Below are positions 9,813-46,962 of a DNA stretch of 64,000 nt, in pieces. The translations under genes were made by a program, and so were the position numbers. Positions within the stretch are counted from its first letter, which is position 1, and each line of letters opens with the position of its first letter. Below the pieces are notes generated by a model. That model ran no database searches. It was given only the letters and a program-made list of their open reading frames with translations, and was not told the DNA's origin. The stretch is from Microthyrium microscopicum (lineage: Eukaryota): the NCBI GenBank assembly GCA_010405405.1, contig MU004237.1:596191-660190 (forward strand). The letters are read 5' to 3'.

Positions 9813-10589
9813 AATGTATATGTGAAGACTCTGGCTTATGGCATAAAGTCAATTTGACTGGCAATTGTGATCAACGTTGAAAATGCGACTTTGATCTACT
9901 GGCTGTTTTCCTCAGATCGCTGGCATATGGCGTGATTGAATGGGTAAACCTAGAGTAGGTTTAAAGCTATTCGTGGGCATCAAACGTGTTGGTGGATATC
10001 CTGTTATCGACACTGGCTTTGGCTTGAATCGAATGCTCCCAGCCATCGTTTAAGACCATAAACGAGAGCAGCGTGTTGATACAGACGTTGTTCGATGGTT
10101 GGCATTGAAATGGCCGCCACTGCACATGATTTCCTCGGTTATCATGGCTATGTTTTTGGATAAATGCTCTTTGCAAAGACTTGATTGCTTTACAGTGGAC
10201 TTGCGGCTTGTCCGTTACTTGAGCTCCATCAAGCATCGATTGTTTGGTCTTTTTGCTTCTGTGTTCGAACAAATAACCATTGTAAAAGCTCGATTGCCGT
10301 GCAGTTGGCATGTGGTTTGGCCATTTCTTGAACACTATGAAGCATCTTATCTCTGCACTCATGCTTTGTCTATTTTATTCTGCCTGTCATCGAGCTTCGT
10401 GTGTTTAGTTTTCCTGCTTACGTGTTCGGACAAAGCATCTTTGCTACATCTTGATTGCCTCAACAAGGGCGATGGGCTTTTGCGAATATTTGCAGAGGGT
10501 ATAAGTCTGGGAGCTGCTAACATTGCCACCAACATAGGCTTCCCAGCTGTACCACAGATCAAATACACGTAGCAATCACTGCGTACACC

Positions 10590-13500
10590 ATGGCTGAAAT
10601 CATCGCAGGGGTTTCTATTGCCTCTAGCTTCATTCAACTTGTCGACTTCGGAACGAAGGTCGTATCCAGGCTCCACGATTATAGATCCGACTTCCAAGAA
10701 CTGCCCAAAGTATTTCGTGATCTGCATATACAGCTTCCATTACTGTTGAGAACAATTGAAGCGCTTCGATCAAAGGCAGAAAGTTCAACGCTTCCGGGAC
10801 TAAAGGATCACCTGGTGCCAATTCTGGATGGGTGCAAGAATGAGCTCCAATCGCTCGATCAGCTACTAACTGACCTTCTACCGGTGACAAACTCATGGAG
10901 AGAAAAGCTAAAGAAAGCCTCTCGAAGTATCTTCCAGGAGTCCAAACTCGAAAGGATGCATAAAACTCTTCGACAATATACCGACACTTTGATGTTCTAC
11001 AGCATCGCGGAGGCACAGAATGGACCAAGTACATTAGGTACTATGCAATTCGGTTTCCTCCAGTATGTTTTATGGTGCTAACTGCTGATAGGGGAAGAAG
11101 TCGACACGCAGAACGAGGCAACTGAAGCCGAAATGGAGAGAATCCGACGATGGGTAAAAGGCCCAGATCCACACATCAACTATCAGAGCGCCCTGAACCA
11201 AAGACTTGACAAAACCGGCTCTTGGTTTCTAGAAGGCAATGAATACCAGAACTGGAAAGCCCAGGACAAGTCCCTGCTGTGGGTCAATGGTATTCCAGGC
11301 AGCGGGAAGTCGGTGTTGAGCGCTTCCATCATTGAAGACGTTCAGCAGTCCCGCCCGGGACTAGCCCTTGCTTTTTTCTATTTCAGTTTCAACGATCCAG
11401 AGAAGCAACTATTTGACAGCTTCTGCCGCTCGATCTTCCAACAGCTTACTCGTCAAGCTCTGATAATCCCCAAACCCATTAAAGAGCTGTTCAGGTCGTG
11501 CACTTCAGGGCGTCGAACACCAACGGTATACGAGTTGGTAAAGGTCTTGGGTGATTTGGTAGGAGCGTTTCCAGGATGCTACCTCATAGTCGATGCTCTA
11601 GATGAAAGTAGCGAGCCTGACAACGTCCTACGCCTCCTAAAAGATCTCTGGTCTCGTGAGAACATTCCGCATCTACATATCTTGATGACCAGTCGGAAAG
11701 AGCGAGACATAGAACTAAGCTTGAGTGGATTTGTGGCCGATGAGGACTGTGTCAGTCTTCAAACGAAGTCAGTCGACGAAGACATTCGTCGGTATGTCCA
11801 GTACTGTTGGGACCATGATCCAAAGTTCAAGAAGTGGAGGAAGAATTCAGAGCTCAAAGCGCAAGTTGAAAAATCCTTGATGCTTAAGGCAAGCGGCATG
11901 TAAGTTGAATGCTTCTCTGGAGGGAGGCACTGTCTGATTCTGCTAGGTTTCGATGGGCATCGTGCCAGATGGATGAGCTCAGGAAGTGTATCAACGTCAA
12001 ACAACTTCGCAATGCCTTAGTCAGCTTGCCAAAGGATTTGGATGAGACGTACGAGCGGATATTGTGTGGGATTGAAGAACAAAATCGCGAATATGCACTT
12101 CGAGTTCTACGATGGCTGGCCTTCGCCAACAGTACCCTCACGACTCTAGAAGTTGCGGAAATAGTTGCGATTGATGCTGAAGGTGAGGGTGCATTTGATA
12201 AAGACGAGGTTCTATCCGACCCGGAAGATATCATCGCACTCTGCTCAAGCCTCGTGACCATTCGAGAAAGCGCAGTGGTTCTCGCACATTACTCCGTTCA
12301 AGAGTACCTGGTATCTTCACGCGCATGCCAAGGACCGGCCAAACATTTCGCCCTTGAAGCAAGACATTCAAATGCGATCGTGGCTTGTGGATGTCTCATG
12401 TATTTGCTGCACCTTGCTGATGGTAGCATGCACGATCTCAAGAAGCTCAAACTATTCTACCCGTTGGCTTTATATTCAGCCCGCCAATGGTGGACTCATG
12501 CGAGCCAGGCATCTGAGAGTTGCGCTGATAGGATCTGCATATTGGCCAACAAACTCGATGGCAATTACCGCGGCTTTACTATATGCCTCTCTTTACACGA
12601 CCCCGATGACAACAATAACCAAGGTCGGAGAAGTACGAATGAGAAGCCAACTCCAGAGCTGTTGTATCATGCAAGCTGCGCAGGTATCATTCCCTTGATA
12701 CGGCAGCTGATGTCAGCTGGAGCAAATGTCAACCATGCGGGCGGCTACCTCGGAACCTCACTTCAAGCCGCGATTGTAAAGAAACACTCACCGGCTGTAA
12801 AGATGCTTCTCGCTGGTGGTGCACACGTTGATGTATGCGGAGGGCGGTACGGATCTGTACTCAATGCTGCATGTGCCACAAACTCGGAGAATATAGTGCA
12901 GCAGCTGATTGTTGCTGGTGCAGATGTGAATCTTCAAGCAGATACGCATGGCTCGCCTCTGCAGGTAGCATGTTGCACTGGATCTGATAAAGTCTTGCAA
13001 CTGCTATTGAAAGCCGGAGCAAATGTGAATGGCCCCCAACCTTTTAACGACAAATTTAACCTATCTAGAGCCGGGGCGTACAGTCCTTTGCAGATCGCAG
13101 CATTCTGCGGCTACACCACGGTTGTAGAGAAACTCCTCGCGGCTGAGGTTGAAGTAGATCTCACCCCGAGTAATCCCGAGCACATTGCGAAAACCTCCAC
13201 GGCCGTCCAGTTAGCAGCTGGCAAAGGCTTCTATGAAATAACAGAGAAGCTGATTGCCGCAGGAGCCGATATCGATCGAAAAACAGCCAGCAGTCCACCT
13301 GCTCTTGCCAGAGCCTGTGAAGCCAAGCATGAGAACATTGTCAGGCTACTAATCCATGCTGGGGCTGATGTGCTTGACTCCGCCACGCTCTTTACTGCTG
13401 TCAGATGCGGGAACGAAGCAGTCATCCAACAGTTTCTAGCCGCAGAAGCTCGTGTTGGCCCACTCTTTGTGGCCCGGAATGATACTTCCTCAGAGCAAGA

Positions 13501-14419
13501 CGACACATTTGTGAGCCCCCTTGTTGCCGCAGTCGTAGAAAACAATCAACGTCTGTTTGAGCATCTTCTCAAAGCTGGAGTTGATCCAAATGCGTCCGGA
13601 TGGACTGTATATTGCTTTGAAGAAGCTTTTCCTAAGCGAGACATAATACAAAACGACTTGCTACGACGACCGATAACTCCTCTATATGCCGCTTCGTGCC
13701 TTGGCCATGTAGCGATGGTGGAAAGGCTTGTCGCGCACGGAGCTGATGTAAACAAAAGGTCTCAGCATGACTACTGTTATGCTCTTCAAGCTGCAGTATA
13801 TGGAATGCATGCTGAGATTGTCAAGCTGCTAATCAAAGCCCGCGCTAACGTTAACCAAATTGGTGGGTTTTATTCCACTGCTCTCAAGGCAGCGGTATTT
13901 GCAAACGCCCGTGTAGAAGAGTTCAGCTACTTGTTCAAGCACTCCAAAGGAATGAAAGAAAACAGTCTTCAAATCCTAGATCTACTACTGGAAAGCGGAG
14001 CAGATGTCGATGCCGCTTGGGGCAGATATGGCACCGCTCTAGGCGCAGCGACGTACTGCAACTTGGCTCCAATCGCCTATAAGCTTATTGACCTAGATGC
14101 AGATGTAAATCGATGCGGAAATGGCACAGAGCCGACTGAAGATGAAGTGCAGTTATGGGGTATTGAACGCATGGGCGACCCAGCTCACAAAGATCGGGTT
14201 ACACCGTGGCAGCTAGCAATACTGAACGGATCCCAAGCTGTGGCACAAATACTCCACGACGCTGGTGTAGACAAGTCGCCTGTGCCGCTAGCGAACGGGC
14301 ACTTTACTGTGCTTTGGGATAGGCATGTTGCAGCACCGTTAGCGAATCAGATACGTCGATACGCACATCTTGGTAACTCTCCTGCTACAGTGCTTGTAGA
14401 AGGACCACGGCCGAGTTAG
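10590..14419 (+). CDS. Fungal NLR: SesA/HeLo-like N-terminus, NACHT-type NTPase, winged helix, ankyrin repeats (introns 11038-11091, 11900-11946)
   Basis: MAEIIAGVSIASSFIQLVDFGTKVVSRL N-terminus; Walker A GIPGSGKS; Walker B YLIVDALDES; GMFRW restored by splicing; LAHYSVQEYL; many G..L.AA...G.DVN ankyrin repeats. Confidence 0.9.
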
Positions 14420-24128: not shown

Positions 24129-24815
24129 TCAATCAATTATTGTCATATTAGTAGATAATGCTGTGCAATCCATCGGTATAGTCAAAACCGGTCCCTCTCC
24201 AACTTCTGCCTGACTGGTAGTATAGCCCGGATTAAACGCCATAATCTGTCCAACAGTGGTCCCAACCCGGGCAGCCAAATCTCTATAAGTACCATATGTC
24301 AAATGATACGGCTGTACGACACATTGACTTGGTGAGCATTGCGGAATTTTGATAGTCATACCAGGATTCAGCGGTGTAGTCACTGTAATGTTGCCACCCT
24401 GTCGACGCCGAGTATTCTTCATTAATGTTGCAGTAGTGATGTTGAACTTCTTCAGTGCGATAGACTCCAATGTGTCGCCTTGTACTGTTTGGTATGTGTG
24501 TGGACCTCCGAGAATGCAAGTTGCAGTTGCGTTTTGTCTTGCCAGTAGGCAGGAATTGTTGTCTGGTTTGCAGACTTCGCTGGGAATAAGGAGAGTTCTT
24601 CCTGGATGTAGAGCAAGGTCTGCGTCGGCCATTCGGTTTGCTCGAGCAATATCGCAAACTCCGCGTTTCATGGCTTTGGAAATAGTCAAGATTGTGTCAT
24701 TGGCTTGAATCCGATATATTCTTTCTGCTATGTTGAGGGCCTTGTCAGTACAGCTTTGTGATGCTGCCTGAGCAATAAAAACTAAGAACAAACAGCAAGT
24801 CGTTTTGAGAAACAT
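24129..24815 (-). CDS. Secreted three-LysM effector-like protein, Ecp6-like
   Basis: Signal peptide; three LysM modules (YRIQANDTILTI, YQTVQGDTLESIA, DLAARVGTTVGQIMAFN); Cys spacing GVCDI..CKPDNNSC..TC..PQCSPSQC..PMDC matches the Ecp6 pattern. Confidence 0.85.
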   Translation of the reverse strand: MFLKTTCCLFLVFIAQAASQSCTDKALNIAERIYRIQANDTILTISKAMKRGVCDIARANRMADADLALHPGRTLLIPSEVCKPDNNSCLLARQNATATCILGGPHTYQTVQGDTLESIALKKFNITTATLMKNTRRRQGGNITVTTPLNPGMTIKIPQCSPSQCVVQPYHLTYGTYRDLAARVGTTVGQIMAFNPGYTTSQAEVGEGPVLTIPMDCTALSTNMTIID

Positions 24816-25448
24816 CTTACAAGATATTTACGGAACCCAATTGAGTAAGAAATCTAGCTTTTGAGAATTGATGTAGTAAGGGATGATCGTGAATATTCAT
24901 ATTGAAAATGGCCTCAGTGATGAGTTTGTACTTTATATGACTGGCACCCAGAAATTTTAAGAAATATACTAAGCCATTTCGGATATCTCATAGACCTCCT
25001 CAAAGTTATAACGCTATATCTAAGATTATCAGGGCAAAATCTCCATGCTGCAGGTGGATCAAAACCTCCACTATATTCATCCTCCTCTTCGGCTTTTCGG
25101 ACACTGGTCTATGGCGAAGCGAATCCCGAGTTGGGCCGACTTTAGACTTGTTCTTAGTTATGCAGCTAGAATGCTGGCTAAAATAAACTTTCGTATGCTT
25201 TGGCAATCTACAGCCTTACCTTAAATATACCAACAATGGCATATTTTCGCGTTGGTAAAGCTGCACGGATCGCTTCAATATCAAACCAAAACATCTCTTA
25301 AGTTAAAATAGCTTAAACCATCAAAGTCTGTGTGCTCTACCAGGTCACAGACATGATTCCGGACCTGTGCTCTATAACTTCTATAAATGCAGCCTCACTG
25401 TACAATGGCACATACACGACCTCTCTTTTCAGCACTTTCGCTTACAAT

Positions 25449-27281
25449 ATGATACAAGAAGCTTTACTGGTCCTAGGGACTTATGTATCCCTCGGTGCTT
25501 GTATCAGTAGCGCATCTCCACAAGGCCTATGGGAAACCACCATTCGCACAAACAGTGGCCCAGTACGAGGGGTACAGGCATTTCCAACAAAACCGGCTTT
25601 CAATATTTCCAGCTGGCAAGATATCACAGTCTGGAAAGGTATACCATATGGAGCATCAACGGCATATGAAAATCGGTTCAAAGCACCCCAGCCACCAAAA
25701 CCCTGGACTGGTGTTAGAAATGCAGATAAATTCGGAGACATCTGTCCAGTGGACCCAAACCAGGAGGCAGGATATCCCATCAGCGAAGACTGTCTGAATC
25801 TTAACATTTGGACAGCTGGATCCTCGATCACTGCAAAACTTCCAGTGGTCCTATGGAGTTATCCTGATGGTGCTTCGGCGTCTCAGCCCAGATTTGATGG
25901 AGCGAAGATGGCTTCCAGAGGTCTGGTATTTGTCAATTATAATTACCGAGCAGCTGCATTTGCCTACTTAGTACATCCCGAACTTCACGAGGAGAGACTT
26001 CGTGAGTCTGGTCATAACTCATCTGGAAATTATCGGATGCTGGATCAATATGCTGCGTTGAAATGGGTCCATGAGAACATTGCCAATTTTGGAGGAGATC
26101 CCAGCAAGATCACCGTGGCAGGAGAGTCTGGAGGCAGTGCCGCCGTTTATCATCTGGTTTGTTTTCTCTTTGTGCTGATTTATAGAGATAGTGCGCTGAC
26201 ACACAGGACTAGGTCAATGGTCCGTTCTCCAAGGGGATGATATCTGGAGCAATATCAGAAAGTGGAATTCGAGATCCATACGATCCAATGTGTGCCACTC
26301 TCGCAGAAAACTACAAAGACCTTGATTACCGGCTTGAGGAGGGTAAGGACTTCCTCAAAGATAGAATTGCTTCCAGCATCAAGGATCTGAGAGCTCTGAA
26401 AATGGAGGACTTGCTAGTCCCTCTCTCCTTTGGGCCAAAGGGAAAGCCGAAAGACCCAGGAAACGGAAAAGGAGGCAAAGGAAAAGGGATGGGTGGAAAG
26501 GGCATGGGCGGGAAAGGCCCACCTGCTTTCAAAAATCTGCCGTCGAGCAGTCGCGCCTGGCAATTCGGTACAACACTTGATTACTTCGCGATTCCGGACA
26601 AGTATATCGACACATTGAAGAAAGGCCCAGCAAACGACGTGCCACTTATAACAGGAAACAATAAAGATGAAAGGTATGTATCTGGGCTGATATATCATTC
26701 AGGGACTAATTATCTTTTGCAGTGGTGTCTTGCCTGATGGACAGAATTCTCCTGAAGAATACAAGTCCGAAATGGAGGCTCTGTTCGGCAAGTTAGCACC
26801 GCGATTTTTCGAGCTTTACCCTGGAAGAAACAGTAGCGAAGCATCCCTTTCATACAACTCTTACTACAGAGACGCCAATCGCGTGTCCTCTTGGCTATAT
26901 GGAAACAAGTGGGCCAAATCAGCAAAGGCACCATTTTATAGCTATTATTGGGACCACGCGCCTCCAGGAACGACTCAAGCCGGACACATGTCGGAGATTG
27001 TGTATGCTCTGGGAAATTTACATACACAGAACTTGTCATATACCGCAGAAGACTATGCGGTTGAAGAGAAGTTGAACTCGTACTGGGTCAATTTCGCAAA
27101 GACAGGAAACCCGAATACAGGAGATGCATACAAGGACGGCACCTTGGAACAATGGCATCCTTCCGTTGAATCCAAAGAAATGACCCATAATGTGGGTAAT
27201 AGTTGGGGTAATGTTCCTATTGCAGAGCCCGCGAAGGTACAGTTCATCAGTGACTTTTTTGCGAGCCAAAAGCCATTCTGA
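25449..27281 (+). CDS. Secreted type-B carboxylesterase (3 exons)
   Basis: WKGIPYG, SEDCLNLNIW, FGGDPSKITVAGESGG (Ser), GNNKDE (Glu), AGHMSEI (His), YWVNFAKTGNPN. Confidence 0.9.
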
Positions 27282-27910
27282 TATCTTGATGGGAATCATG
27301 CGAGGCTATCAACATAACAACACAGTACCCTGAAAATAGAACAATAATATTGACATAGTTTCCAAGAAGCTTTCAGACTGTGATCCAGTGAAGTCCACTT
27401 CGTGACTGCTCGGTTGATCTGCAGTCATTTGTGACCAGCGATCAAGTAGACTCCTTCTCAAAAGGTCATGATATATGAATTTGAGAGATCAGACGAAGCG
27501 CCGGTATGTTCATAGAAACCGCTGAAGTATGCTATATTCGATGATGATGAGGGCGATAGGAGGGGCTTAGCCTAAAGCTTTGAGGGCATTTGCTTTACAA
27601 GATCGGCATGGATTCCGTCTAACTGCAGCAACCTGCAGCTCATCTGCATCCATGTCAAAGATAAGCCCAGGTACTGCCACGATTAAGTACCTCCGTCTAC
27701 CTCAACGGCGCAATCCGCTGTCATGCTATAGATGACTTTAGGGAGCTAACAAGGTGATAGGCATGCTTCGTTGCAGCAGTACAAGCTTGTATGTCGACCT
27801 TGGAATTCATCTCTTCTTATCGACTGTGGGCTGATCTTGATTCTTGAAGGTAAACCTAGCCTGCTATTCCACTTCCCTGCCTAAGCTTAGCTTCATGGAA
27901 TCTTCCGAAC

Positions 27911-30900
27911 ATGTCAAACTGGGCGGCTGCATTTAGCGAAGGTGGTGCAGAGGAAGACGGCCTCGAAGAAGACGAAGTATGGGAATCCACTGAATGCGAT
28001 GCTTGCGGTAGCTTTGATTCGGATCTCTACTACTGTTTATCATGCGTACAGACCTTGTGCGATACTTGCTGGGAAGAAGTGCCTGCTCATGGGAGAAACA
28101 AATCGAGGTTCCGTTTCCCGAATATTAATGGCATGAAGCACGAAAAGACTCCACATCATGTTCTCAAAGCCATACAGCCGGCATTTTTCACTCCTCCTAA
28201 TGATGCTTCGTATGAGGCTATGTTGAAGGAAGATGACCAGGCCTCTTGGTTTGGTTAGTATATCACTATATTTGTTGTTCTCAGCCTGAACAAAGCTGAT
28301 CAACGGGCTTAGGAGTCCGTCGAGAGGAAGATGAGAAGCTACCCATTCTCCTGCAAGACCATGGTCGATTCCCGGAATTGATGGCGGCTTCTAGTATCGA
28401 TTCTCGGAAGAAGTTTATGCAGCAAGGAAAAGGTCCAACAAGAGTCGTCAAACGAACCCCAATACTAGTTTCCTTTGTCGGACAGACTGGTGCAGGCAAA
28501 AGTACATTGATCCGTCTATTAATCGGCTTGAAGTTGGACCACAAGACCAGCAATGGCGTACGTCCACAGCTCCCTGTCATTGGCAGCGCCATCTCCGACA
28601 TAGCTACTTCATCGGACGTTCATTTATATCCAGATCCTGCCACCATTCAAACCGAAAATCCTATACTCTATGCCGATAGCGAAGGCCTAGATGGTGGAGA
28701 GCGTCTATCTTTATCAGCTTCGTTTCGCTCACTATCAACAAGCGATAGCATAGCGCCACCTTTTGTTTCTGAGGGATCATTTAGAGCTGCGTTCTGCTCA
28801 GAACGGGAACTCGTTTGGTCTGATGATCCTTCACGTCGTACCAGAGACTTTATAGTCGCTCAGTTGTACTCGAGGCTGCTCTTTACTTTCTCAGATGTTA
28901 TCGTCTTCGTTCAGAGAAACGCCAGGTACGTATTGATCAGAGTTGCGCGATTTGATCCTAATAATTATATTCAGAGTAATCGAAGGCGTCATCGAGACCA
29001 TGGTAGAATGGGGTAAAGCTGATGAAAAGAATTCTCTCTGGTATAAATAAGCTGATGTATTGATAGCTGCCGCCGCACTGGAAACAGCATACAATCAACC
29101 TATCTTGCCTTACGCAGTTGTAGCACTCAACGCAACAGACGAATCTACGCCTGAGGAACTATGGGATGTCAACGTATCAACTAGTGCCATTCTGAGCTCC
29201 TTTTCTGGAATCCTTTACAAGAATCTGGTCTTCAAACGACACGTAAAGCTTTGGGCAGACAGAGGCAAGATTGTTACCACACTAGACGAGCTATTGGGCT
29301 GTTACTTTTCTAAAGTCCAAATCATACGAATTCCCACAAGTCAAAGTCCGAATCTGATGTACAAGCAAGGCCATCAACTGTACTCGGAAATCTCCGCTGC
29401 TGGTAGTCTGGCTCAAGTTCGAAAATCACACTTACGAATGCTTCTCAATTCTCGCCAGCTTCAAGCATATCTGGATCGTGCGTTTGACCACTATTCTCGA
29501 ACTCTTGAACATCCATTCGACTTTGTTCAAGCTTCTTTCCTGAACTCGCCTGTCCCTAATAACTTGGGTGACAACATTCTGGAATTCGCGATTGTAAGCA
29601 AATTGCAAAGTTATTTTTGCCCTTTACTTGCCATTGTTCAGTGCTATTACTTTAAGGATACTGCCAGAACACTCCTCACATTAAATGACGCTGGCAAATT
29701 TCGTGCTAGACAATGAGATAATTGTTACTGACCAGCAATTAGGCACTCATGAATCACCAAATTGAGGAGAAGCAGCCACGCGTTGGCAAGGAAATATTTG
29801 AGAAGCTCAGTCCACTAATTGCATCCTGTATCATGATTGATGCTATCCGTCACAGTGTTCTTGGTACTATTTTACTTTTGTCTTCGTACACAAATAACCA
29901 AAAGATCAACCTTTACTAACATGGCAGCTAGGAACCGCAGACAGAATATTTCCAGAGTATTTGAAGCACCTGGACACTGCCCTGCAACGTTTTTGTAACT
30001 ATCACTGGCGCTGTGAATACAACACAACGGGACAAATACCGGCCCACTTGCAGGCTCATTTGAACGCAGTAGGTTTTCTCTTATGCTTCATATGGTCCCA
30101 ACAAGATCACATATGCGCCCTCGTACTACGGAATTATGCTAACCTACGCGCGGGTTCATTTTCACAGAAATATGCGAGCCACCGCAATCATTTACAGATG
30201 TAATAATACTCGCATTGGGCATACTTCCAAAGGCCATCAGCTCCAGAGCGGCATTATATTCAAGCATGGCGAATACTTCTCAAACATCACGTTTGCCAAC
30301 TATAGAGATACATTTCATTCCTTGGTGTTCATGCACTTGTCAGATATACTTTCGAAGCTTGGCAGCAATTCAGACGACTCCTTGTTACAACAAGCTCGAG
30401 CACATCGACTCCATTCCGACGTTCTTAAATCATTCTATTCGACTTACAAATCGGCAGAGACTCTAGGAATTCCCAGTCATAACATCTGTTTAGGCTGCTT
30501 GTCAGGAAGTCCCGAGCATGTACTTTCTTGTGAAGACGTTCTTTGCTCTGCATGTATAGAAGCTTACGGCCGACCTCAGGGTCGGAATGCTTATGTACTT
30601 GAGACCTGCCCCATTGGTTTTCAGCACGAGAGTACAATCGAACCTCAATACATTTGCTCGAAGCCAAAAAATGCTGGGGTTCGATTACTATCCCTTGAAG
30701 ATGGTGCTCTCCACAGCATTACTCAATTAGAAGTGCTTCGCCGGGTCGAGCTCGAGCTCCTGGGCAAGATCTCTGTGAGATCACTGTTCGATATGATATC
30801 CGCAAACGGCATGGCATCGATTATTGCGCTAGCCATTGCTACCCAGGAGTGGTCGCTAGACGAATGTGCCAGTAAATTTCTGGACATAGCGACACAATCA

Positions 30901-32228
30901 TTCAGCCAGTCAAATCTTCGAAAAACTCGAAAACTTCTTGGAGTCAATAAAGGGGCACTTGCGGCGAAATATCGATCTTCGTCATTGGAATCTAGTCTAC
31001 AAAAAGCGTTTGATTCTGATGCTGTGTTGTTCGGACCTGAGTCTAGGTGTTTGGGGAATACTTCGATACCAAAAGTCATGATTACTTCAGAGAGCGCCGA
31101 TGGTGGAACTACTGTGTTCACTAATTATCATCGTGGAAACTCAAAATCATGTAAGTAACATTGTACCCTGACAGTTACATCTCTGACGTCCATTCCAGTG
31201 CCGTATAAGGTAGTGCGACCGAATTCGGTCAAAGGAGAAATGAAGATCTGGGAAGTGTAAGTTCTTACACGATTTGCAATAACACACATCCCAAAGCTTA
31301 CCTCATAAAGTGCTCGAGCATCACTGACGTTTTCGGGTCACTTCAAACCCTTCAAGCACGATGCCACAGAAAGGACCTACACTGGCCATGGAGGATATCC
31401 ATCGGATCCAATCGAAGTCATGCAACATGAGTCAGAGCGACTTTGGCCATCTCCAACGTCTACATTTCCAGACGCTGTGCTATCAATTGGTACCGGAACA
31501 GGCTTGAACAATTCGAAATTCAAGTTCTCCAAAGAAGCGACAGAGCGAATGATGTGGAAGCCCGCCAGAGCAGCAACTAGCGAAAAGCCCGAAGAAGAGC
31601 CCCACGACTCAGCCTGGAACCAATTCCTTGGTACTTTACCTCCAAACTATCCTAGCTCCAAATATAGTCGTCTAGATGTGCAGATACCTCACATTTTGCC
31701 TGAAAAAGACGATGTCAGTGCGCTCCTCGCCTTTCAAAAGACTGTGCGAGCCAATATTCGACAGGAAGAGATCAGAGAGATTGCAATGAAGCTTCTCGCA
31801 GCATTATTCTACTTCGAAAGAACCGGGATCATAGATGAAGTATCGGACGAGGAATTCTATATATATGGTAATATTGCCTACTCTGGAAGCATCTTTTTTC
31901 CTTTGCAAGACTGACTTTGTCGATAGGAGAAATTCACTGCCGACTGCCTAACGGAAGATCAGAGGTCAAGCAGTTGGCCGACCTCTTGACAGACAAGAAG
32001 TTCGATAATCCAGCTTTCATCTTCCAAGAAACACATGGACCAGAGCAGTGTTTTCCCATTCCTTCCTGCTCATTAGACGATATGCAGAGATCTTGCCGCT
32101 TCCGACTTCCAGGAATACGGATCCGACTCTCTCGCAGCATGGCTGAGGTAGATGCTGTCCTCAGGGTCACGCCTGAGGAGAAATTTTCTATCAGCGGATT
32201 TCCACGAGTCATGCAAGAGACTGAATGA
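27911..32228 (+). CDS. Large multi-exon protein: B-box-like Zn finger, P-loop GTPase-like domain, RING-like Zn finger, degenerate patatin domain
   Basis: CDAC..YCLSCVQTLCDTCW..H; FVGQTGAGKST; YADSEG; ICLGC..PEHVLSC..LCSAC..CP; RLLSLEDG, KIWEVARAS..FKPF and VLSIGTG are patatin-fold motifs. Confidence 0.75.
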
Positions 32229-32272
32229 ATGGATGGCAGTCGATTGAGATTACTTGGTCACGACTTCCCAGC

Positions 32273-33999
32273 TCATCGGGAAGCACGAGTGAGTTTGACC
32301 ATAAGCGGACCCTTCTCCCAAACGAAGAATACTCGCTGCTTCTTCGTCCAATTCTGGCTTTCAGGCAGCAACTCGATATCAAAATTCCAAACTAATCGTG
32401 CCAAGATGGTACGCATTTCCATATATGCGAGATTTTTGCCAACGCAATTCCTTGGCCCATAGCTAAATGGCTGCAAGACGTCCTTCTTGTCATGGTCGTA
32501 GCGGGGATCCTCGTCAAGCCAGCGAGATGGTACGAAGGAATCGGGGTCTGTGAAGTTCGAAGCACTATGATATGCTGCCCATTGGCAGACTCCGACAGAT
32601 GTACCTCCTGGCACAGCATATCCGTCGACAATATCACCGCCTGGTGGGACTTCGCGTGGCAGGCCGACAGAGATTGGTGGGTAGACACGCATGGCTTCTG
32701 TCAGCACGGCAGTCAAGTAGGGAAGGCTGGAAACAGCGGAGAATCTGATCTCATCTTCGGTCTTGAATTTTTCGCGGATCTCAGCTTTGAGCCTTTCCAT
32801 GGTGTGAGAATTTTGCGATAGGTAATAAACGGCACCGGCAAGGAGCGTTGCCGTAGTCTGACATTTTGTTAGCATGTGTGTATGAGGGATATAAACGGGA
32901 AGGGTAAATCAATCAAATTGACCTGATATAGGGGGCAGAGAAGGAGATGAAGTTAAAATAAGCCTGCCAACCACGTGGAAAATTCAATCCACGTGGATGA
33001 CGTTGCCGCGATGGTATTCAAGTTCATCAAATGAAAATCTTACCTCCGAACCGCCAATGATGATCACATAGGCGTTGGTCTGAATTTCAGGGACAGTTAG
33101 TCTTGTCGCCTTGTCCCCATGTCGCAAGATGTAGGTAATGAAATCCGGCCGTTTAGTTTCACCCTGTTCGATTCGTTTGCTGACTTGTTGCTTGACAAGC
33201 TCAGCGTGCGCCATGCCTTCATCGATAGTCTTCTGCGGAGCAAGTTTCATGAGCAAGCTTTTCAAGAATGGTATCTTTCCAGCCACATTGCTGTATACAA
33301 ATAGCTTCAGGTTTTGGAACATGAATGTAATCCACGGGTGCATCTTGCCATCTCTTAGGCAGTTGAAAGACTCGCCAAACGCCAGATCGCCAATGACATC
33401 GAAAGCGGTGAAATTGAACCAAGCAGCGAGATCAACCGGCTTGCCTGCATTTTCGTGTAGGCGAGCCATCAGTTTGTCCACATATTCGGTGATCAACGGC
33501 TCTTGCTCTCTCATGGCTTTGTCGCTGAATGCATGAGATATCACTCGTCGGAATCGAGAATGAGTTGCTATATCGGTGACAATCATGTTTGCAACCTCGA
33601 AGCCTTCGGCAGGCTGTATTTCTTTTGACTTCGGCATTTGGCCTTTACCTGGTCTGGAACCATAGACATCCGGCCAAGTTTGTGGTGTGATGAAAGACAG
33701 TTCGTTTGGCGCCACTCGCACGACAGGCCCATATTTGTCATGAAGCTCTGCGTACTTGTAGATACCGATGCCTTGTACAGTCTGTATCATGTTTGGAAGC
33801 TCAAATGCGGCATAGAGCTTGGGACCTGGGAATTTGGAAAGTGGATGCAAGTATGCATTATAAACAAGTCGGAAGGCAACATAACTGAGCAACTAGACAC
33901 TCATGAGCACGGGTAATGGTGAAATAATTTTGCTCAGAGTTTGGAAATACCACATACCACGATACTGGTGCCCAGAATCAACTCAGATGTATTGATCAT
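32273..33999 (-). CDS. Cytochrome P450, CYP65-like (3 exons)
   Basis: HPLSKFPGP, GPVVRVAPNELSF, GGSE|TTAT split by an intron, EAMR, PSRW, heme motif FSYGPRNCVG. Confidence 0.95.
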
Positions 34000-34887
34000 G
34001 ATGGATACCGTGTAGTTTCAAGCGACCAAAAGGCTCAGAGGCGAAAACACCACGGTGAGATCGTGATATATGCCAAATTTCCAGTGATTTCCTGACCTGC
34101 TGGGCTTGCGAGGATGAGTTGGAATTGTGATTATAATTTGCGTGCTAGAATGCTATAGTCCCAAAATTTGGTATTTCAAATCTATAAAGATGGTCAATAC
34201 ACATTAGCTCTATAAGAACTTTCCTGTCGAATAACAACACAGGAGACATACTCTGATGGACGTACCTGCTAGAATGATGGAAGGCAGGTAGTACTTACCT
34301 GTACAATGCTAGTGTTTTCCAAGGCGTTCAGTTTTAGAGGACGGTCCAAAGTTGTAACAAGTCAACAAGTCAACCCAAATGCAAATGGCTACCGGTAGCG
34401 TCAATGATAGTACGCGTTTGTCTAGAGAGTCGTTCCAGCGATTTCATAGCCACGATATTTATAGGTCTAAGAGGTGAATAAAAAGCACTCATGCATGCAG
34501 CAGATAAGCTAAAAGCTAACCTTCGTACCTTCGTACCTCTGGTGACCCATTGCCATCAAAATTCTACTCTACCATCACGGTCACCTACCAACAGCATCAA
34601 ACAACAACAAATCATGATGCTCCAAAGCTCGAGTTCTTTGACTGTAAGACCATGATGGTTGCTCTTTACACATCTTTGCTTTGTCGCGGTTTGTCCTTCC
34701 CCGCAAAAAGTGGGCCTGCATGGCGGCTTCTTTTGTTTGCGTCTCCTGAAGATCTCTAAATAAGTATTTTGGTTCCTTTCATCATACATTCCCCTCTTCC
34801 TCTTTTTCATCCATCTATCGCAGAAATATTTTGATCGGGCACTTCTCAAGATACCTACTCGATTACTCTTCCAAGAGCGAAGAGGAA

Positions 34888-35880
34888 ATGGCTCCCAATG
34901 CCCCAACCGGAGAAGCCTACAACGTGGACTGGATCGTTTCCAATACCTCTGACATTCACGCAACCAACAACCGTGACTGGTTCACGGCCTACACTCCCTT
35001 CGAGACTACATTCGGCACGATATACACCAAAGAACACAGTGTCAAGGCTTTGGGCATTGGTGAAGTGCATCTGAACGTCAGACTCTACAAGCAGAAGAAA
35101 GGCAACAAGCCTAACTCCAAGATCCTTGTTCTAAAGGATGTCCTCTACGCTCCTAGTCTTACCTGCAATATTCTTGCTACCCCAGTCCTCTCCGAGCATA
35201 GTCTCAATTTTGTTGGCGGAGGTGGCTACTTGACCGACGGAGATGGTAAACGCGCTGCCCTGATCGAGACACTGGTGCTTCCGCGCCTGCGTCTTCATGG
35301 CCAGCCCGCTGGAAAGTCCAGCCTTGATCCCAATACAATGTACTTGATGAATGCAAGTTGGTCAGCTCCTGAGCGAGCTCGCTGGGAGAGACAGAACCCA
35401 AATCGCACCGCACCTTCCTTGGGCGAGGCGCCATACACTGAGGAGGAGAATGCCTGGTTGAACAAACACTACGACGGAGAGTTCAAATTCCTTCGCACAT
35501 TGGGCTTGTCAATCCACAAAGAGGAGGATCGTGAGGAGGGTCGTCTCATTGCAAGAGGTTTCATGGAGGATGATGCCAAAACACAGACCAGCTCAACTTC
35601 TCAGGCGTCGAAACAGCCCACAGTCGACGTCGAAATGATCGACCCGAACGATGAGACCAGTGATGATGATGATGATGGCGATACATTTTTGCAGGAATTG
35701 GAAGATGATCCCATGAGCCACCTTGCGGACTACAACTTTTCTGCCAAAGAGCTCAAGTGGATCAAGAAGAACTACAAATACTCTTCCAGATTCATGTTGA
35801 GCTACCGTCTCAAGCCGTTTGAGCAAGAAGATTGCAACACTGCTAAAGAACTTATCAAAAGTCTGATGGCTGGACCGTAA
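34888..35880 (+). CDS. Free-standing protein with a Copia-type Pol protease-like beta-barrel and two copies of a small helical motif
   Basis: WIVSNTSDIHATNNRDWFTAYTP...ALGIGEVHL...LKDVLYAPSLTCNIL follows the Copia protease-region pattern WxxDSGAxxH..F..Y / G.G.V.L / L.DVLY.P.L..NL. Confidence 0.7.
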   Translation: MAPNAPTGEAYNVDWIVSNTSDIHATNNRDWFTAYTPFETTFGTIYTKEHSVKALGIGEVHLNVRLYKQKKGNKPNSKILVLKDVLYAPSLTCNILATPVLSEHSLNFVGGGGYLTDGDGKRAALIETLVLPRLRLHGQPAGKSSLDPNTMYLMNASWSAPERARWERQNPNRTAPSLGEAPYTEEENAWLNKHYDGEFKFLRTLGLSIHKEEDREEGRLIARGFMEDDAKTQTSSTSQASKQPTVDVEMIDPNDETSDDDDDGDTFLQELEDDPMSHLADYNFSAKELKWIKKNYKYSSRFMLSYRLKPFEQEDCNTAKELIKSLMAGP

Positions 35881-43517: not shown

Positions 43518-45830
43518 TTAGACTAAGGTGATATCCTCCAAGTCTTCTCCTGTCCACTTCTGTCCCTCCATCATCGCGTGAATAAAAGCTGGACCAACAT
43601 GGGAGTAAGCCCCAGATGCCATGCGCCGTAGAATAAGTGGCATCGCTATTCCAGACCCGAGCATTACATGATCTCCAACGGCAATACTTCGAAATGCTGT
43701 TCCTAACAGCCCATCTGATGTCACGAAGAGAACCCTTCCAAACAACTTGTCACAGATATCTCTATGGAAAGTTACTGATGTATTTTGAAGCCTTATGAGG
43801 TCTCGCCAGTGTAGCAGCTGCTCATGAGTGTCAACCATCATAGAGTTTGCAGTGACTAGAGACTGAAACCAGTAATTGAACACATCAGACTCCTCTGGTG
43901 GCACACGAGACATGACTCGAGCATAGAGAACCTCATGAACGGCACTGTGAATCGTGTCTGATTCTTTTTGCAGCCTCATTCGAAGTCTAATCGTAGTAAA
44001 AGCATCGAAGAAAGTTTGGGCAACATCTTGTTCTGCGTCAAAAGGACTGGAACAATATAATACTGTGCCACGAAAACATCCACGTATAACTAGTCGCGAA
44101 TTCTCCATCAATCTCCACACCGGCAAAGATTTAGATGTAGTTGCATGGCCATCCACACTGTAGACACAAGCAGGATCCAGCCAAGCTCTTGAGGGTGTGT
44201 GAGCTAAACTCCAATCTGGAGTCCAAGAAGTGGCGTTTAGCAGCCCAGGAAGACCAGCATCTAAAAGTAAGTTTAGTGACCCTCCCCAGTGCAAAAGGGC
44301 CAAGAACAGCTCTTGATAAACCAGTCCGACGGGCTTCTCATAGCTGACTAGTGCAATGCCGACCCCCAAATCTTTCAGTACGCCATACAGCCCATATGAT
44401 TTATCTCTAGGATCTTTGCATTGACGGGTACGGATGGCGCGCTGGATAGAGAGAAACATAGATAGGTCTATAGTCTTAGGTAGCTTTTTGTCTGGTGAGC
44501 CTGGTACCAACTGTAAGGGAGACATGAAATTGAAGAACATGATGCAAAACATTGCGACGAGGGACAAACTGGTGATAGGCCAAAAGATTTTGTCGACATG
44601 AGAATCCGAATTCGTAACAATGTAACTTGTGTCGAAAGTTCCATTCAGGTACAAAACTTCCACCTGACCTGTGTGGTGAAAACGATGAAATATACCTTTG
44701 TTTTCGGAATACAAGACCATGATCGTGATAAGCGAACCCATGAGCAAAAGGAGGATCACAGTGTGCACTATTCGCAGAAGAGCTCTGACCATTTTGTTGG
44801 CAAGAGCCTGGTAATGGAAGAATGAAATCCCCGGACGTCGGTTTGCGGATTCCGGATCCAGTTTTTGTCGCGGAGCTGGAATAAGGCGCCGAACCTGGCG
44901 GTTGTTCCAATGCGACTTTCGCTCGAAGTTCATCCAGAGCTGAATAATTGACATCCAGATATCGTATTGTGTAGGGGCTATTGCCTGTATTGTTTTGCTG
45001 TTGGCTGCATACCATTCCCAGGTTCCAAGCACAAGTCCTCGAATAAAATCGTTCCAGGTAACCATTTGCGTGCCACAGATTACTACTACATTACGCGCCA
45101 GGATGATCTCCTGTAAGGTCCATATACGTTCAGCCCAGTCGCATGATAGGAGCGTTTGAAAGTCTTCCGCCTGGAATCGCTTATCGAAGCGTCGACTTTG
45201 GATTTGATCTAAATAGTCCGTCATAACGTATTTGTTGTTGCTCACAGCAAAGCACTTACCCTGAAGTACGCCAACTGGCGCCAGAAATGTCCAATACAGA
45301 TCTTTGATGGAGAAACAAGCACTCTTCATTCGCCCGCTCATAGTCGGCGCTGATTTGAGTTCCATGTCTTCCAGACACCGAACAAACTTTGGTGTGTAGC
45401 GAATGCAGTCCATTGCTCTGTCGGTCTGAGCCGTCCCCTGTCCAAGCCAGAGGAACACGGTTTCTGCCCATGAATATATCTCTTCCATTAAAGGGATCTG
45501 GATAGCCTTTTCAGCATTGTCCGACTGGTTGATAGAGACAGCATCGACCCATATCGTGAGATGGCCGTAGAGCCTCCTTAGGGAAATGAGAGCTTGGTAA
45601 CAATTGACCGTGACGGCAATGTCATACCCGGAGCAACTAATCGTCGGATCGCTGTCTGTTTGAGGACCCCAGACATATGATAAGGCTGTAAAGCGCGGGC
45701 AGTCCGCCAGTGAAATAACGCGAAGGGTTGCTCGGAGTGCTGCCTGAGGGGAAGAATCAGGGTGAATGTCAAGAACCCGAGTCATTCGGGCTGCATCCAG
45801 AGGAAACTGACGATACAGACTCGAGTTCAT
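43518..45830 (-). CDS. HET-domain (heterokaryon incompatibility, HET-6-like) protein with inserted transmembrane hairpin
   Basis: FTALSYVWG, IWVDAVSINQ, MEEIYSWA, WAERIWTLQEIILA, CKDPRDKSYGLYG, SWTPDWS, C-terminal VGPAFIHAMMEG. Probable in-frame 51-nt intron at 45209-45259. Confidence 0.9.
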   Translation of the reverse strand: MNSSLYRQFPLDAARMTRVLDIHPDSSPQAALRATLRVISLADCPRFTALSYVWGPQTDSDPTISCSGYDIAVTVNCYQALISLRRLYGHLTIWVDAVSINQSDNAEKAIQIPLMEEIYSWAETVFLWLGQGTAQTDRAMDCIRYTPKFVRCLEDMELKSAPTMSGRMKSACFSIKDLYWTFLAPVGVLQGKCFAVSNNKYVMTDYLDQIQSRRFDKRFQAEDFQTLLSCDWAERIWTLQEIILARNVVVICGTQMVTWNDFIRGLVLGTWEWYAANSKTIQAIAPTQYDIWMSIIQLWMNFERKSHWNNRQVRRLIPAPRQKLDPESANRRPGISFFHYQALANKMVRALLRIVHTVILLLLMGSLITIMVLYSENKGIFHRFHHTGQVEVLYLNGTFDTSYIVTNSDSHVDKIFWPITSLSLVAMFCIMFFNFMSPLQLVPGSPDKKLPKTIDLSMFLSIQRAIRTRQCKDPRDKSYGLYGVLKDLGVGIALVSYEKPVGLVYQELFLALLHWGGSLNLLLDAGLPGLLNATSWTPDWSLAHTPSRAWLDPACVYSVDGHATTSKSLPVWRLMENSRLVIRGCFRGTVLYCSSPFDAEQDVAQTFFDAFTTIRLRMRLQKESDTIHSAVHEVLYARVMSRVPPEESDVFNYWFQSLVTANSMMVDTHEQLLHWRDLIRLQNTSVTFHRDICDKLFGRVLFVTSDGLLGTAFRSIAVGDHVMLGSGIAMPLILRRMASGAYSHVGPAFIHAMMEGQKWTGEDLEDITLV

Positions 45831-46962
45831 GATGCTATGATAAAGATGTAGAATGTGAAGCGCTCCGGGGAATTGAGGCCGGTTTTGAGCGTCTCACAAC
45901 GACACGTCGAACGAGCCTTGCTTTCCATGATCGTACTTCTGATCAGGCTGAGCTAACCAGATCCGGTGTAACTGAAGGCGTCGAAAGCAAGAATGAACCA
46001 ATCAACGATGGTCAGCCACTTTGGCATAGCCCTACATCTCAAGGTCAGTTCTAAATTGGTACTCCAAAAAGATCGCCGGTAGAACTATGGGCCAATAATC
46101 TTCAGTGTCTTTGGAAGAAGATCTAGTAAGTACCTAATTTAGAGCCAAAAATAGATTAGGGAAGTCAAGATGGTGTATCTCTGGCAAGTCAATATGTAAT
46201 ATCGGTATCCTTGCTGCCGATCAATCAACACCCTTGAAGCTTTACAGTGTCATTGGGGTTGAGCGATCCCCCCCCCCAAAATTCTTGCTGAGAAAGTTCA
46301 GCCGTTGATTGGCTTATAAGCAAGCCACCAAGGCTCTATCAGGCTTAGTGAGTAGAAGTTTCGTTGTGGTCGAATCGCTTCTATCCAAGCTTTCATTTTG
46401 CACCAATTACATCGTAAGTTGGTGTTCTATATTTTTAGCGGGGGGGATCGCTCAACCCCAATGGCACTGTATAAACTACTCCAGGGTAGCTTGTCAAGCT
46501 TGTATAAATGTAGCTCACCGCCCACAATCGTCTCCAAAACCTTCCTCTCAACAAAAATATTCTTCATCCACGAGAGCCAAAAAAACGTACAGCAGTAGGG
46601 ATTCTCACGTGGTCACCCACCGCAATACTAATCTACCGGTTCGAAGCTTAAATAGGGCGGAGCGGACGGGACGCCTTGTATTCTTCGACCTATGGCCGTA
46701 CGTGAAGGACAATTGTAATCGATCATTACATATAATTGTTGACTTCGATCGATCATCAACGGCGAAAATCGCGTTTATTCAAAAGCAAGCACTTCTTTTA
46801 CAGTATCATCGCAGCTTGAATCTCAGAAGTAAACCCTCATGACCAAACTATTATCATTTCTATCTCGCCTGCATACCAATAAATTATCTTTATGCTCCAA
46901 GTCTCATGTACAGATCCACTTTCGTGTCGTTGTGCTATGTCCTTCTTCTCCTTGCTCCTTGA

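Follow-up and report, generated by a model that had tools for sequence, protein, structure and literature searches.

The gene, its transcript and a corrected model

The DNA analysed here is a 64,000-nucleotide stretch of contig MU004237.1 from Microthyrium microscopicum, a fungus of the Dothideomycetes (order Microthyriales), and this whole stretch is referred to as the window. It is fungal DNA with short introns, and positions 27911-32228 of its forward strand hold one gene, the product of which is deposited at NCBI as the hypothetical protein BT63DRAFT_456762 (P0001; 1188 residues, 100% identical to the locus over the longest exon). The gene encodes zinc fingers, a P-loop nucleoside triphosphatase (NTPase) region and a patatin-like phospholipase domain in a single protein. 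A first-pass annotation, made from the letters of the window, had proposed that the NTPase motifs are intact and that the patatin domain is catalytically dead within an otherwise open spliced frame. We hold with high confidence that the gene is real and expressed, that its patatin domain is dead for the Ser-Asp mechanism and that it belongs to a conserved clade of such proteins.

One sequencing run (X1) carries the gene stretch, with sampled words present at a fraction of 0.78, near the exonic share of the stretch. Over the region 27600-32500, a contig of 4460 nucleotides (nt) from this run follows the genomic DNA with zero differing letters while skipping ten segments, and it is because of these ten intron-like skips that we regard it as complementary DNA (cDNA), the run's label 'RNA' being itself a guess. 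The contig spans the whole coding region, zinc finger included, from within the 5' untranslated region (UTR) to a point past the stop codon, which excludes that the two halves of the protein are made from separate transcripts and is as expected for the single multi-domain protein that had been proposed. The start ATG at 27911 and the stop ending at 32228 are the same in P0001 and in the spliced cDNA contig, and all of the motifs quoted in the first-pass annotation lie in frame on the forward strand, each mapped to its coordinates (Table 1).

Nine of the ten introns, one of them in the 5' UTR, have GT..AG ends, and nine cDNA junctions are those of the deposited model. The tenth deviates: the RNA joins 30068 to 30154, removing an intron of 85 nt that ends GT..GG, while the deposited model, which presumably required canonical intron ends, instead removes 29958-30167 and with it 42 conserved residues. 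The RNA-based coding sequence (CDS) is 3693 nt long, comprises 10 exons and encodes 1230 residues with 0 internal stops, its sole difference from P0001 being the 42 extra residues after residue 556. The restored residues hold the family-wide motif FPxYxxHxDxALxxFCDxHWPCE, and the corrected junction, in frame (...HLQAHLNA/VHFHRNMRA...), agrees with the closest relative, P0159 (HLQAHLNTLHFHRNMRA). The splicing assumed for the open frame was therefore right, as judged from one cDNA, and it is the deposited model that is wrong at one junction. The GG acceptor of intron 6 may be a true non-canonical site or an assembly base error at 30152; a frameshift or pseudogene reading of 30069-30167 was ruled out by the cDNA junction. 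Around the 38-nt exon 3, the cDNA joints are 28922 to 28972 (cut +3) and 29011 to 29066 (cut +1). The locus is thus a concrete case of an annotation error arising from a non-canonical GT..GG intron.

A fungal family with a fixed domain order

From its N-terminus, the protein consists of a B-box-like zinc finger, a P-loop GTPase-like domain, a helical region, a Cys/His module, a RING-like finger, a CapV-like patatin domain and a C-terminal domain that is probably DUF8392. A word-indexed search listed 116 relatives, most of which cover 90-100% of the query at 27-39% identity, and all of the named relatives in that listing belong to the Pezizomycotina. An exhaustive HMMER search of cluster representatives returned 2684 proteins at E<=0.001, of which 373 reach E<=1e-30, and a profile of motif-intact Dothideomycete members returned 600 proteins at E<=1e-50. 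Going by sequence comparison, the same predicted domain order is that of hundreds of Pezizomycotina proteins. The closest relative, P0159, is a 58%-identical metagenomic protein fragment, the DNA of which did not turn up among metagenome contigs. Seven more distant loci obtained from these contigs (23-39% identity) served for a view of gene context alone, and the RING-IBR gene and amino-acid permease near one of them are uninformative.

In an alignment of 65 full-length members (A1; Microthyrium and 64 relatives, 57 rows being motif-intact), the order of the conserved blocks is fixed throughout. The NTPase consensus consists of VSFVGQTGAGKS, PTSxDVHLY, LYADCEGLxGGE, FSDVIVFV and VLNAxE, with a conserved helical region next; the RING-like consensus is C-x2-C-x10-C-G-H-x2-C-x2-C-x17-C-P-x-[HEDC]; that of the patatin domain is LDGGGIRG, GTSTGG, ARATSAAP and DG[AG]; and the C-terminal block ends in ISGFPR. 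Pfam PF28431 is precomputed on many relatives, and the atlas name for a related cluster is DUF8392. Two relatives carry RING-type labels in their source databases, one relative ends in SPRY, and the variable C-terminal add-ons of the relatives include SPRY plus ankyrin or SH3.

The family appears to be undescribed as such, the protein being held in databases as 'hypothetical' with a tail that is a Pfam domain of unknown function. Our literature search, which left subscription journals mostly uncovered, turned up neither an account of the architecture nor one of the dead clade, and no mention of DUF8392 or PF28431; it found two Fusarium knock-out screens, neither of which noted the architecture in the available parts of the two papers. 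We note that in Fusarium (P0313-P0326) the gene is often annotated as two proteins, an N-terminal one of ~666-682 residues under the name 'C2H2-type domain-containing protein' and another one for the C-terminal half, and that given these split annotations Fusarium gene counts and 'lipase' lists may be off. In six other proteins (P0108, P0112-P0114, P0199, P0201; ~750-970 residues), the module of B-box and NTPase comes last, preceded by 360-590 residues without a Pfam match, and a patatin domain is lacking; they represent either a different architecture or truncated models.

The NTPase motifs are intact, as had been proposed. The P-loop, D236-x-E-G239 and N353 are invariant in 65/65 rows of A1, as are the columns G171, G176, K177, S178, V217, H218, D236, G239 and G243, Microthyrium included; at position 356, 36 rows have E and 13 have D. 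A P-loop GxxxxGK[ST] followed by DxxG (here GQTGAGKST and DSEG) is common to many GTPase classes and is not decisive for GB1/RHD3. For the closer assignment to GBP/atlastin-like GTPases, the evidence is divided. On its side are the DxEG motif and the language-model look-alikes of residues 116-556, which are RHD3/Sey1, GBP and SMG9 clusters at 0.90-0.93 and which we rate as a lead; on the other side, PF02263 and PF05879 are not among the P0001 matches at E<=1, nor among the 25 families listed of 47 matched by 24 relatives (E<=10), and the filters of HMMER discard most weak matches. The family shares with GBP, atlastin, RHD3/Sey1 and SMG9 proteins a P-loop with D-x-E-G after it and a large G-like domain at the N-terminus that leads into a helical region, and its D-x-E-G-x-[DE]-G-x-E-R stretch seems to resemble RHD3/Sey1. 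Unlike GB1/RHD3 proteins, it has N-A-x-[ED] as fourth motif, that of GBPs being RD, and has neither a transmembrane segment nor a CaaX box; no transmembrane-like segment was found in the Microthyrium protein, a soluble one in which no stretch of 19 residues exceeds a mean Kyte-Doolittle value of 1.69. SMG-9 itself is a weak PDB profile match (E 0.16) confined to the P-loop region, and matches to 'Cake' designed-repeat PDB entries were discarded as spurious. The GBP/atlastin/RHD3 assignment, drawn from motifs and look-alikes, is therefore to be taken only as a lead. No NACHT match was obtained, NB-ARC was matched in 3/24 relatives at E values of at least 0.027, and no repeat domain was found in P0001.

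The two fingers recall TRIM proteins. The family profile of A1 matched the B-boxes of TIF1-beta (5.7e-4) and MID1 (8.1e-4) in the PDB, and P0001 has B-box spacing, Pfam zf-B_box scoring E 0.014 and 16 bits, below the cut-off of 24.1. Matches to the RING-like finger are weak (Pfam zf-RING_5, E 0.12), its pattern C-x2-C-x10-C-x-H-x2-C-x2-C-x17-C-x2-[HEDC] being C3HC4-like. Unlike in TRIM proteins, the order is reversed, the B-box coming first and the RING-like finger ~650 residues later, and the protein has an NTPase and a patatin domain besides. The Microthyrium finger furthermore lacks two of the eight metal ligands, ligand 4 being D (CGH to CED) and ligand 8 being G (CP.H to CPIG), which makes E3-type activity doubtful in this species; P0159 carries both changes too.

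Loss of the patatin active site in a conserved clade

Pfam Patatin (PF01734) matches residues 735-921 of P0001 with an E-value of 2.7e-6 (28.2 bits, the cut-off being 27.7) and motif-intact relatives with 72-90 bits. A PADLOC phospholipase profile for the cyclic oligonucleotide-based antiphage signalling system (CBASS) matches residues 721-966 of P0001 at 1.8e-12, and the PADLOC CBASS phospholipase-effector profiles match motif-intact relatives almost end to end at 5e-39 to 7e-41. The top solved relatives of the family profile in the PDB are CBASS CapV (2.8e-27), iPLA2-beta and potato patatin, and on the strength of the PADLOC and PDB matches we call the domain CapV-like. CapV, a cGAMP-activated bacterial effector, differs in being a single-domain protein of ~330-360 residues with an intact Ser-Asp dyad that is activated by cyclic dinucleotides (PMC12480259); the Microthyrium domain lies inside a protein of 1230 residues, is without oxyanion loop, Ser and Asp, and has no known cyclase partner.

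Eight rows of A1 are without Ser and Asp, namely those of Microthyrium, Acephala, Phialocephala, Cudoniella, Tricladium (where the Asp column is ambiguous), Clohesyomyces, Trichodelitschia and Zopfia, and three further dead members, from Lepidopterella, Lindgomyces and Verruconis, bring the total to 11 species. The Gly-rich oxyanion loop D-G-G-G-x-[RK]-G, found as DGGGxRG in at least 55 of the 57 motif-intact rows, reads EDGALHS in P0001. Its nucleophile Ser is gone as well, S-A-N-G-M-A being aligned to G-T-S-T-G-G with Gly in the serine column, as in 7/8 dead-clade members, and so is the catalytic Asp, since YTGHGG stands in place of Y-x-D-G-[AG] with G in the Asp column (Asp lost in at least 6 of the 8). 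The claim that four patatin motifs and the RING CGH are altered in Microthyrium is borne out by the consensus over the 64 full-length relatives, which is canonical at each.

When the patatin columns are excluded from the tree, these eight rows form one clade with a support of 98 in the Shimodaira-Hasegawa-like approximate likelihood ratio test (SH-aLRT), and in a mixture-model tree of the pre-patatin part all eleven rows do so (99/99). Microthyrium is sister to four Helotiales rows (P0002-P0005; 100/99), and the dead clade, made up of Dothideomycetes and Helotiales, is nested among motif-intact Dothideomycete members. Tricladium varicosporioides has both a dead copy (P0005) and a motif-intact copy (P0302), and since the latter is placed elsewhere in the tree the dead copies of the Helotiales are paralogous or transferred; their position inside a Dothideomycete clade suggests either ancient paralogy, with copies lost since, or a transfer from one class to the other. 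The clade also has an insertion of its own, of 20-24 residues in the Cys/His module, which motif-intact rows are without. On these trees, the catalytic loop, Ser and Asp are best placed as lost once, in the subfamily that forms the dead clade.

Where the clade has changed was scored on columns at least 85% conserved in the 57 motif-intact rows, a definition that favours those rows and leaves the comparison between domains fair. P0001 keeps 14/14 such columns in the B-box, 62/71 in the NTPase, 33/40 in the helical region, 19/21 in the Cys/His and RING modules and 21/24 in the C-terminal domain, as against only 42/69 patatin columns; the pattern is the same in the remaining seven members of the clade, which keep 45-58/69 there. 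The lost columns are those of the active site (in the loop, its second Gly; in GTSTG, T and S; positions of ARATSAAP; D-G; and in HNNP, N), while of the scaffold columns more than 30 persist in 7 or all 8 of the clade members, so that the loss of patatin motifs, followed across relatives, is clade-wide and confined to active-site columns. Eight positions are conserved solely within the dead clade, and the replacement residues at the catalytic sites vary among its members. The ratio of patatin to NTPase divergence in close pairs is 1.12-1.28 for dead (n=3), 0.78-2.69 for intact (n=6) and 1.57-1.96 for Ser-less (n=2) members; for whole clades it is 1.30 in the dead one versus 1.17. Measured against the NTPase, the dead domain diverges no faster than intact ones. 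The dead domain does not appear to be drifting neutrally, since it is still ~40% identical between fungal classes. These protein-level proxies all argue for a conserved pseudo-lipase over decay.

Across the family, the state of the active site is variable. Among 188 full-length members, 145 have Ser and Asp, 24 lack only Ser (mostly GTGTGG), 18 lack both and 1 lacks only Asp; Ser is thus absent in 42/188. The tree requires at least 13 state changes, losses or regains, for Ser and at least 7 for Asp, these counts being taken from a FastTree tree and from a sample biased to relatives of the queries.

Table 1. Positions of the exons, motifs and domains of the gene within the window
Feature	Position	Strand	Remarks
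5' UTR intron	27789..27849	+	61 nt, GT..AG; joint 27788 to 27850; transcript starts upstream of 27788
CDS exon 1	27911..28253	+	ATG at 27911; cDNA contig
B-box-like zinc finger C-x2-C-x9-C-x2-C-x4-C-x2-C-x6-H	27995-28090	+	In exon 1
CDS exon 2	28313..28925	+	P-loop NTPase core
G1 GQTGAGKST	28480-28506	+	Exon 2, in frame
Candidate switch-I TSSDVHLY	28606-28629	+	Exon 2, in frame
YADSEGLDG with G3 DSEG	28669-28695	+	Exon 2, in frame
Strand LLFTFSDVIVF	28876-28908	+	Exon 2, in frame
CDS exon 3	28975..29012	+	38-nt micro-exon encoding VIEGVIETMVEW; translation as in P0001
CDS exon 4	29067..29593	+	NTPase end and start of conserved helical region
N-x-x-D motif LNATD	29126-29140	+	Exon 4, in frame
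CDS exon 5	29743..29863	+	Helical region
CDS exon 6	29932..30068	+	First half of Cys/His module; part 29958-30068 lost in deposited model
RFCNYHWRCE	29988-30017	+	Cys/His module, exon 6
Intron 6	30069..30153	+	85 nt, GTAGGT...GCGCGG; cDNA joint 30068 to 30154
CDS exon 7	30154..31150	+	Second half of Cys/His module, RING-like finger, first two thirds of patatin domain
RCNNTRIGHTSKGHQ	30196-30240	+	Second half of Cys/His module, exon 7
RING-like finger	30487-30618	+	Exon 7
LSCEDVLCSAC (CED replacing CGH)	30523-30555	+	RING-like finger
CPIG	30607-30618	+	RING-like finger end
LSLEDGALHS (Gly-rich loop replaced)	30688-30717	+	Patatin domain
ISANGMASII (nucleophile elbow replaced)	30796-30825	+	Patatin domain
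CDS exon 8	31199..31256	+	Patatin domain, continued
CDS exon 9	31311..31867	+	Patatin end and start of C-terminal domain
RASLTFSGHFKPF	31315-31353	+	Patatin domain, exon 9
YTGHGG replacing Y-x-D-G-[AG]	31378-31395	+	Patatin domain, exon 9
CDS exon 10	31927..32228	+	Conserved C-terminal domain, probably Pfam DUF8392; stop codon 32226-32228
ISGFPR	32190-32207	+	C-terminal domain, exon 10

The gene is flanked upstream, on the same strand, by a carboxylesterase gene (25317-27281) and downstream by a convergent cytochrome P450 gene (32273-33892), into which the cDNA contig continues; a second carboxylesterase is found farther off in the window. Several genes of the type associated with non-self recognition occur within these 64 kb. 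Some 14 kb upstream, three adjacent open frames (10521-14419, forward strand) encode SesA, NPHP3_N/NACHT and ankyrin repeats, which together resemble a NOD-like receptor (NLR), while a HET-domain open frame of 791 residues lies at 43518-45893 and a LysM protein at 24129-24827, both on the reverse strand. A Pol_BBD open frame, probably a retroelement fragment, is located 2.5 kb downstream (34750-35880, forward strand). No repeats were found near the gene. Elsewhere in the window, a tandem array of six 42-nt units with a strong G-over-C skew occupies 2022-2315, in a part where several open frames without a Pfam match overlap. GC is lowest in the window (0.38) at 50338-51482, where a direct repeat of 193 nt has its copies at 50338 and 51093 (93% identical) and an inverted repeat of 85 nt has its arms at 51282-51366 and 51398-51482 (92% complementary); this segment is possibly a small degenerate mobile element. 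Genes for patatin-like phospholipases (PLP) and SesA-NACHT-ankyrin NLRs have been described as conserved cargo of Starship elements (PMC9156397). A Starship link was dropped, no captain, DUF3723 or ferric reductase being present in the window (no match to DUF3435, DUF3723 or ferric reductase in its 87 scanned open reading frames) and Microthyrium occurring in the supplement of PMC9156397 once, in the genome list, and not in the element lists.

A disarmed phospholipase domain in a putative NTPase machine

The family member with a functional record is FG05_08139 of Fusarium graminearum (P0315), which we take to be the gene named FGSG_08139. It is a full-length member (28.7% identical over 1205 residues, E 1.9e-157) in which GQTGAGKS, DCEG, FSDVVVF, CGH..C..C and the patatin domain follow one another as in the Microthyrium protein, and it is Ser-less (GSGTGG); unlike the Microthyrium protein, it retains a Gly-rich loop (LDGGGVRA) and Asp (YTDGAV) and does not belong to the dead clade. 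Of the mutants in a screen that covered 86 putative lipase genes, seven had any phenotype, among them fg08139, the deletion of which reduced growth and left perithecia small and immature, and in the available part of that report the one virulence defect was that of fgpld1 (PMC10269793). Slower growth upon deletion of FGSG_08139 has also been described elsewhere (PMC13278821). In these studies, FGSG_08139 figures simply as a putative lipase, one among 86, or as a gene that is a candidate target (PMC10269793, PMC13278821). Deletion phenotypes are thus known for the Fusarium gene and none is known for that of Microthyrium.

As read from its domains, the Microthyrium protein is probably a part of a nucleotide-driven protein machine that does not act as an enzymatic lipase. 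In the mechanism that we propose, the N-terminal NTPase would undergo nucleotide-dependent switching or self-assembly, aided by the zinc-finger modules, and the dead patatin domain would serve as a non-catalytic module for lipid or membrane binding or for oligomerization; CapV is reported to bind membranes through basic surfaces and to form filaments when activated (PMC12480259). The cellular role would lie in membrane or organelle homeostasis for hyphal growth and fruiting bodies rather than in killing, by analogy with the Ser-less F. graminearum member, whose deletion slows growth. We consider this whole package, an expressed pseudo-phospholipase driven by an NTPase and with a role in membrane or organelle homeostasis, to be rather probable. 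The specific non-catalytic role ascribed to the patatin domain is put forward more tentatively, and another may well prove correct.

A number of observations weigh against this interpretation. Pfam, NCBIfam and PDB profiles give the NTPase region matches in the P-loop region only, mainly to ABC transporters, HflX, RsgA and MMR_HSR1, what else they list being zinc-finger and other weak matches. Expression is known from one contig of the single run listed for the gene, and the constraint on the dead domain is argued from protein-level proxies alone, with a 58%-identical fragment as nearest relative. The Microthyrium branch is long (1.02 versus a median of 0.23; 1.30 versus 0.49 in the mixture tree), and the loss of RING ligands makes some relaxation in this lineage possible. 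As to the analogy with Fusarium, the relative is just 28.7% identical, keeps Asp and stands outside the dead clade, and the equation of FG05_08139 with FGSG_08139 is an assumption of ours based on a naming convention.

A wider claim, which we think unlikely though deserving of consideration, is that the family as a whole is an undescribed fungal machine combining a GBP/RHD3-like NTPase, TRIM-like fingers and a CapV-like domain, the main job of which is free of hydrolysis. It draws on the Ser changes in the tree, at least 13 in number, on the need for a Ser-less member in normal growth and perithecium formation and on the persistence of a fully disarmed clade that has an insertion of its own and has apparently passed between Dothideomycetes and Helotiales. 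The patatin domain of such a machine may primarily be a regulated membrane-binding or filament-forming module, with lipase activity as an optional add-on.

Among the alternatives, the one that fares best, improbable as we find it, is that the dead copy regulates active paralogues or acts as a decoy for them, joining mixed assemblies in which it would dampen or steer their lipase activity. Many genomes carry several family members, T. varicosporioides combines a dead and an intact copy, and lipases of the CapV type work as oligomers (PMC12480259). For Microthyrium, the inhibitor or decoy role suggested by the first-pass annotation is not supported, no second family protein of this species being found among the 116 matches listed or the best 120 of the 600 (annotated proteins only). 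Zopfia, Clohesyomyces and Trichodelitschia are likewise represented solely by dead copies among the matches listed, and the Ser-less member of Fusarium has a phenotype of its own (PMC10269793).

Slightly less probable again is a device of innate immunity or allorecognition, in which a TRIM- or GBP-like sensor would be coupled to a disarmed CBASS-type effector domain. The B-box and RING fingers, the CapV-like domain and the GBP/RHD3 look-alikes do recall immune proteins, as do the variable C-terminal add-ons of relatives (SPRY plus ankyrin, or SH3). The SesA-NACHT-ankyrin NLR, the LysM protein and the HET-domain gene of the same window point the same way, and the patchy distribution, with Helotiales copies inside a Dothideomycete clade, fits the behaviour of accessory genes. 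Patatin is moreover the cell-death effector of a fungal NLR, PLP-1 of Neurospora (PMC10197012; Bcvic preprint), so that in another filamentous ascomycete the domain is joined to a nucleotide-binding switch. The resemblance to PLP-1 ends there: its patatin domain is N-terminal, is followed by NB-ARC and TPR repeats and requires catalysis, while in the Microthyrium protein the NTPase does not look like a STAND (signal transduction ATPases with numerous domains) NTPase and the patatin domain is C-terminal and predicted to be catalytically dead. There is no NACHT or NB-ARC domain, the neighbourhood of one window is anecdotal and devoid of Starship markers in its 87 scanned open reading frames, and the knock-out data for the family are growth and perithecium defects, the virulence defect being that of fgpld1 only in the available part of the screen (PMC10269793).

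That the protein is still a hydrolase, acting through non-canonical residues as claimed for plant pPLAIII, we regard as very unlikely. The pPLAIII proteins are claimed to keep activity. Their esterase box GxSxG is replaced by GxGxG (PMC4253999), as in many fungal family members with GTGTGG or GSGTGG. The frequent loss of Ser in the family would be compatible with such a mechanism, as would the Ser residues found in P0001 three positions either side of the canonical site and the His beside the lost Asp. The pPLAIII proteins are, however, single-domain plant proteins, and the Microthyrium protein is additionally without Gly-rich loop and Asp; three separate elements have been lost together, DGGGxRG having become EDGALHS and both Ser and Asp having become Gly, and replacement residues that differ across the clade are unlike a relocated active site.

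Finally, gene decay, by which the open frame would be a relic of recent date, with the unusual intron and the long branch as signs of early pseudogenization, can draw on the long terminal branch, the RING changes (H to D and H to G), the GG acceptor and the loss of all catalytic motifs, and is hardly credible nonetheless, given 1230 codons open over 10 exons in a transcript spliced in frame, the retention of conserved columns outside the patatin domain, a 58%-identical relative (P0159) that shares both the dead motifs and the H to D change, and a dead state that is common to 11 species of two classes, in a well-supported clade with a conserved patatin scaffold.

The interest of the non-catalytic reading lies in the contrast with what patatin-like lipases do elsewhere, where bacterial CBASS, plant immunity and fungal NLRs all use them as death effectors. 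In the present family, such a domain has long been conserved without its catalytic residues, as part of a large fungal protein of wide occurrence. If the non-catalytic reading is true, surveys that count genes of this kind as lipases miscount, and the natural series of intact, Ser-less and dead members could serve to separate the enzymatic from the structural roles of CapV-type domains.

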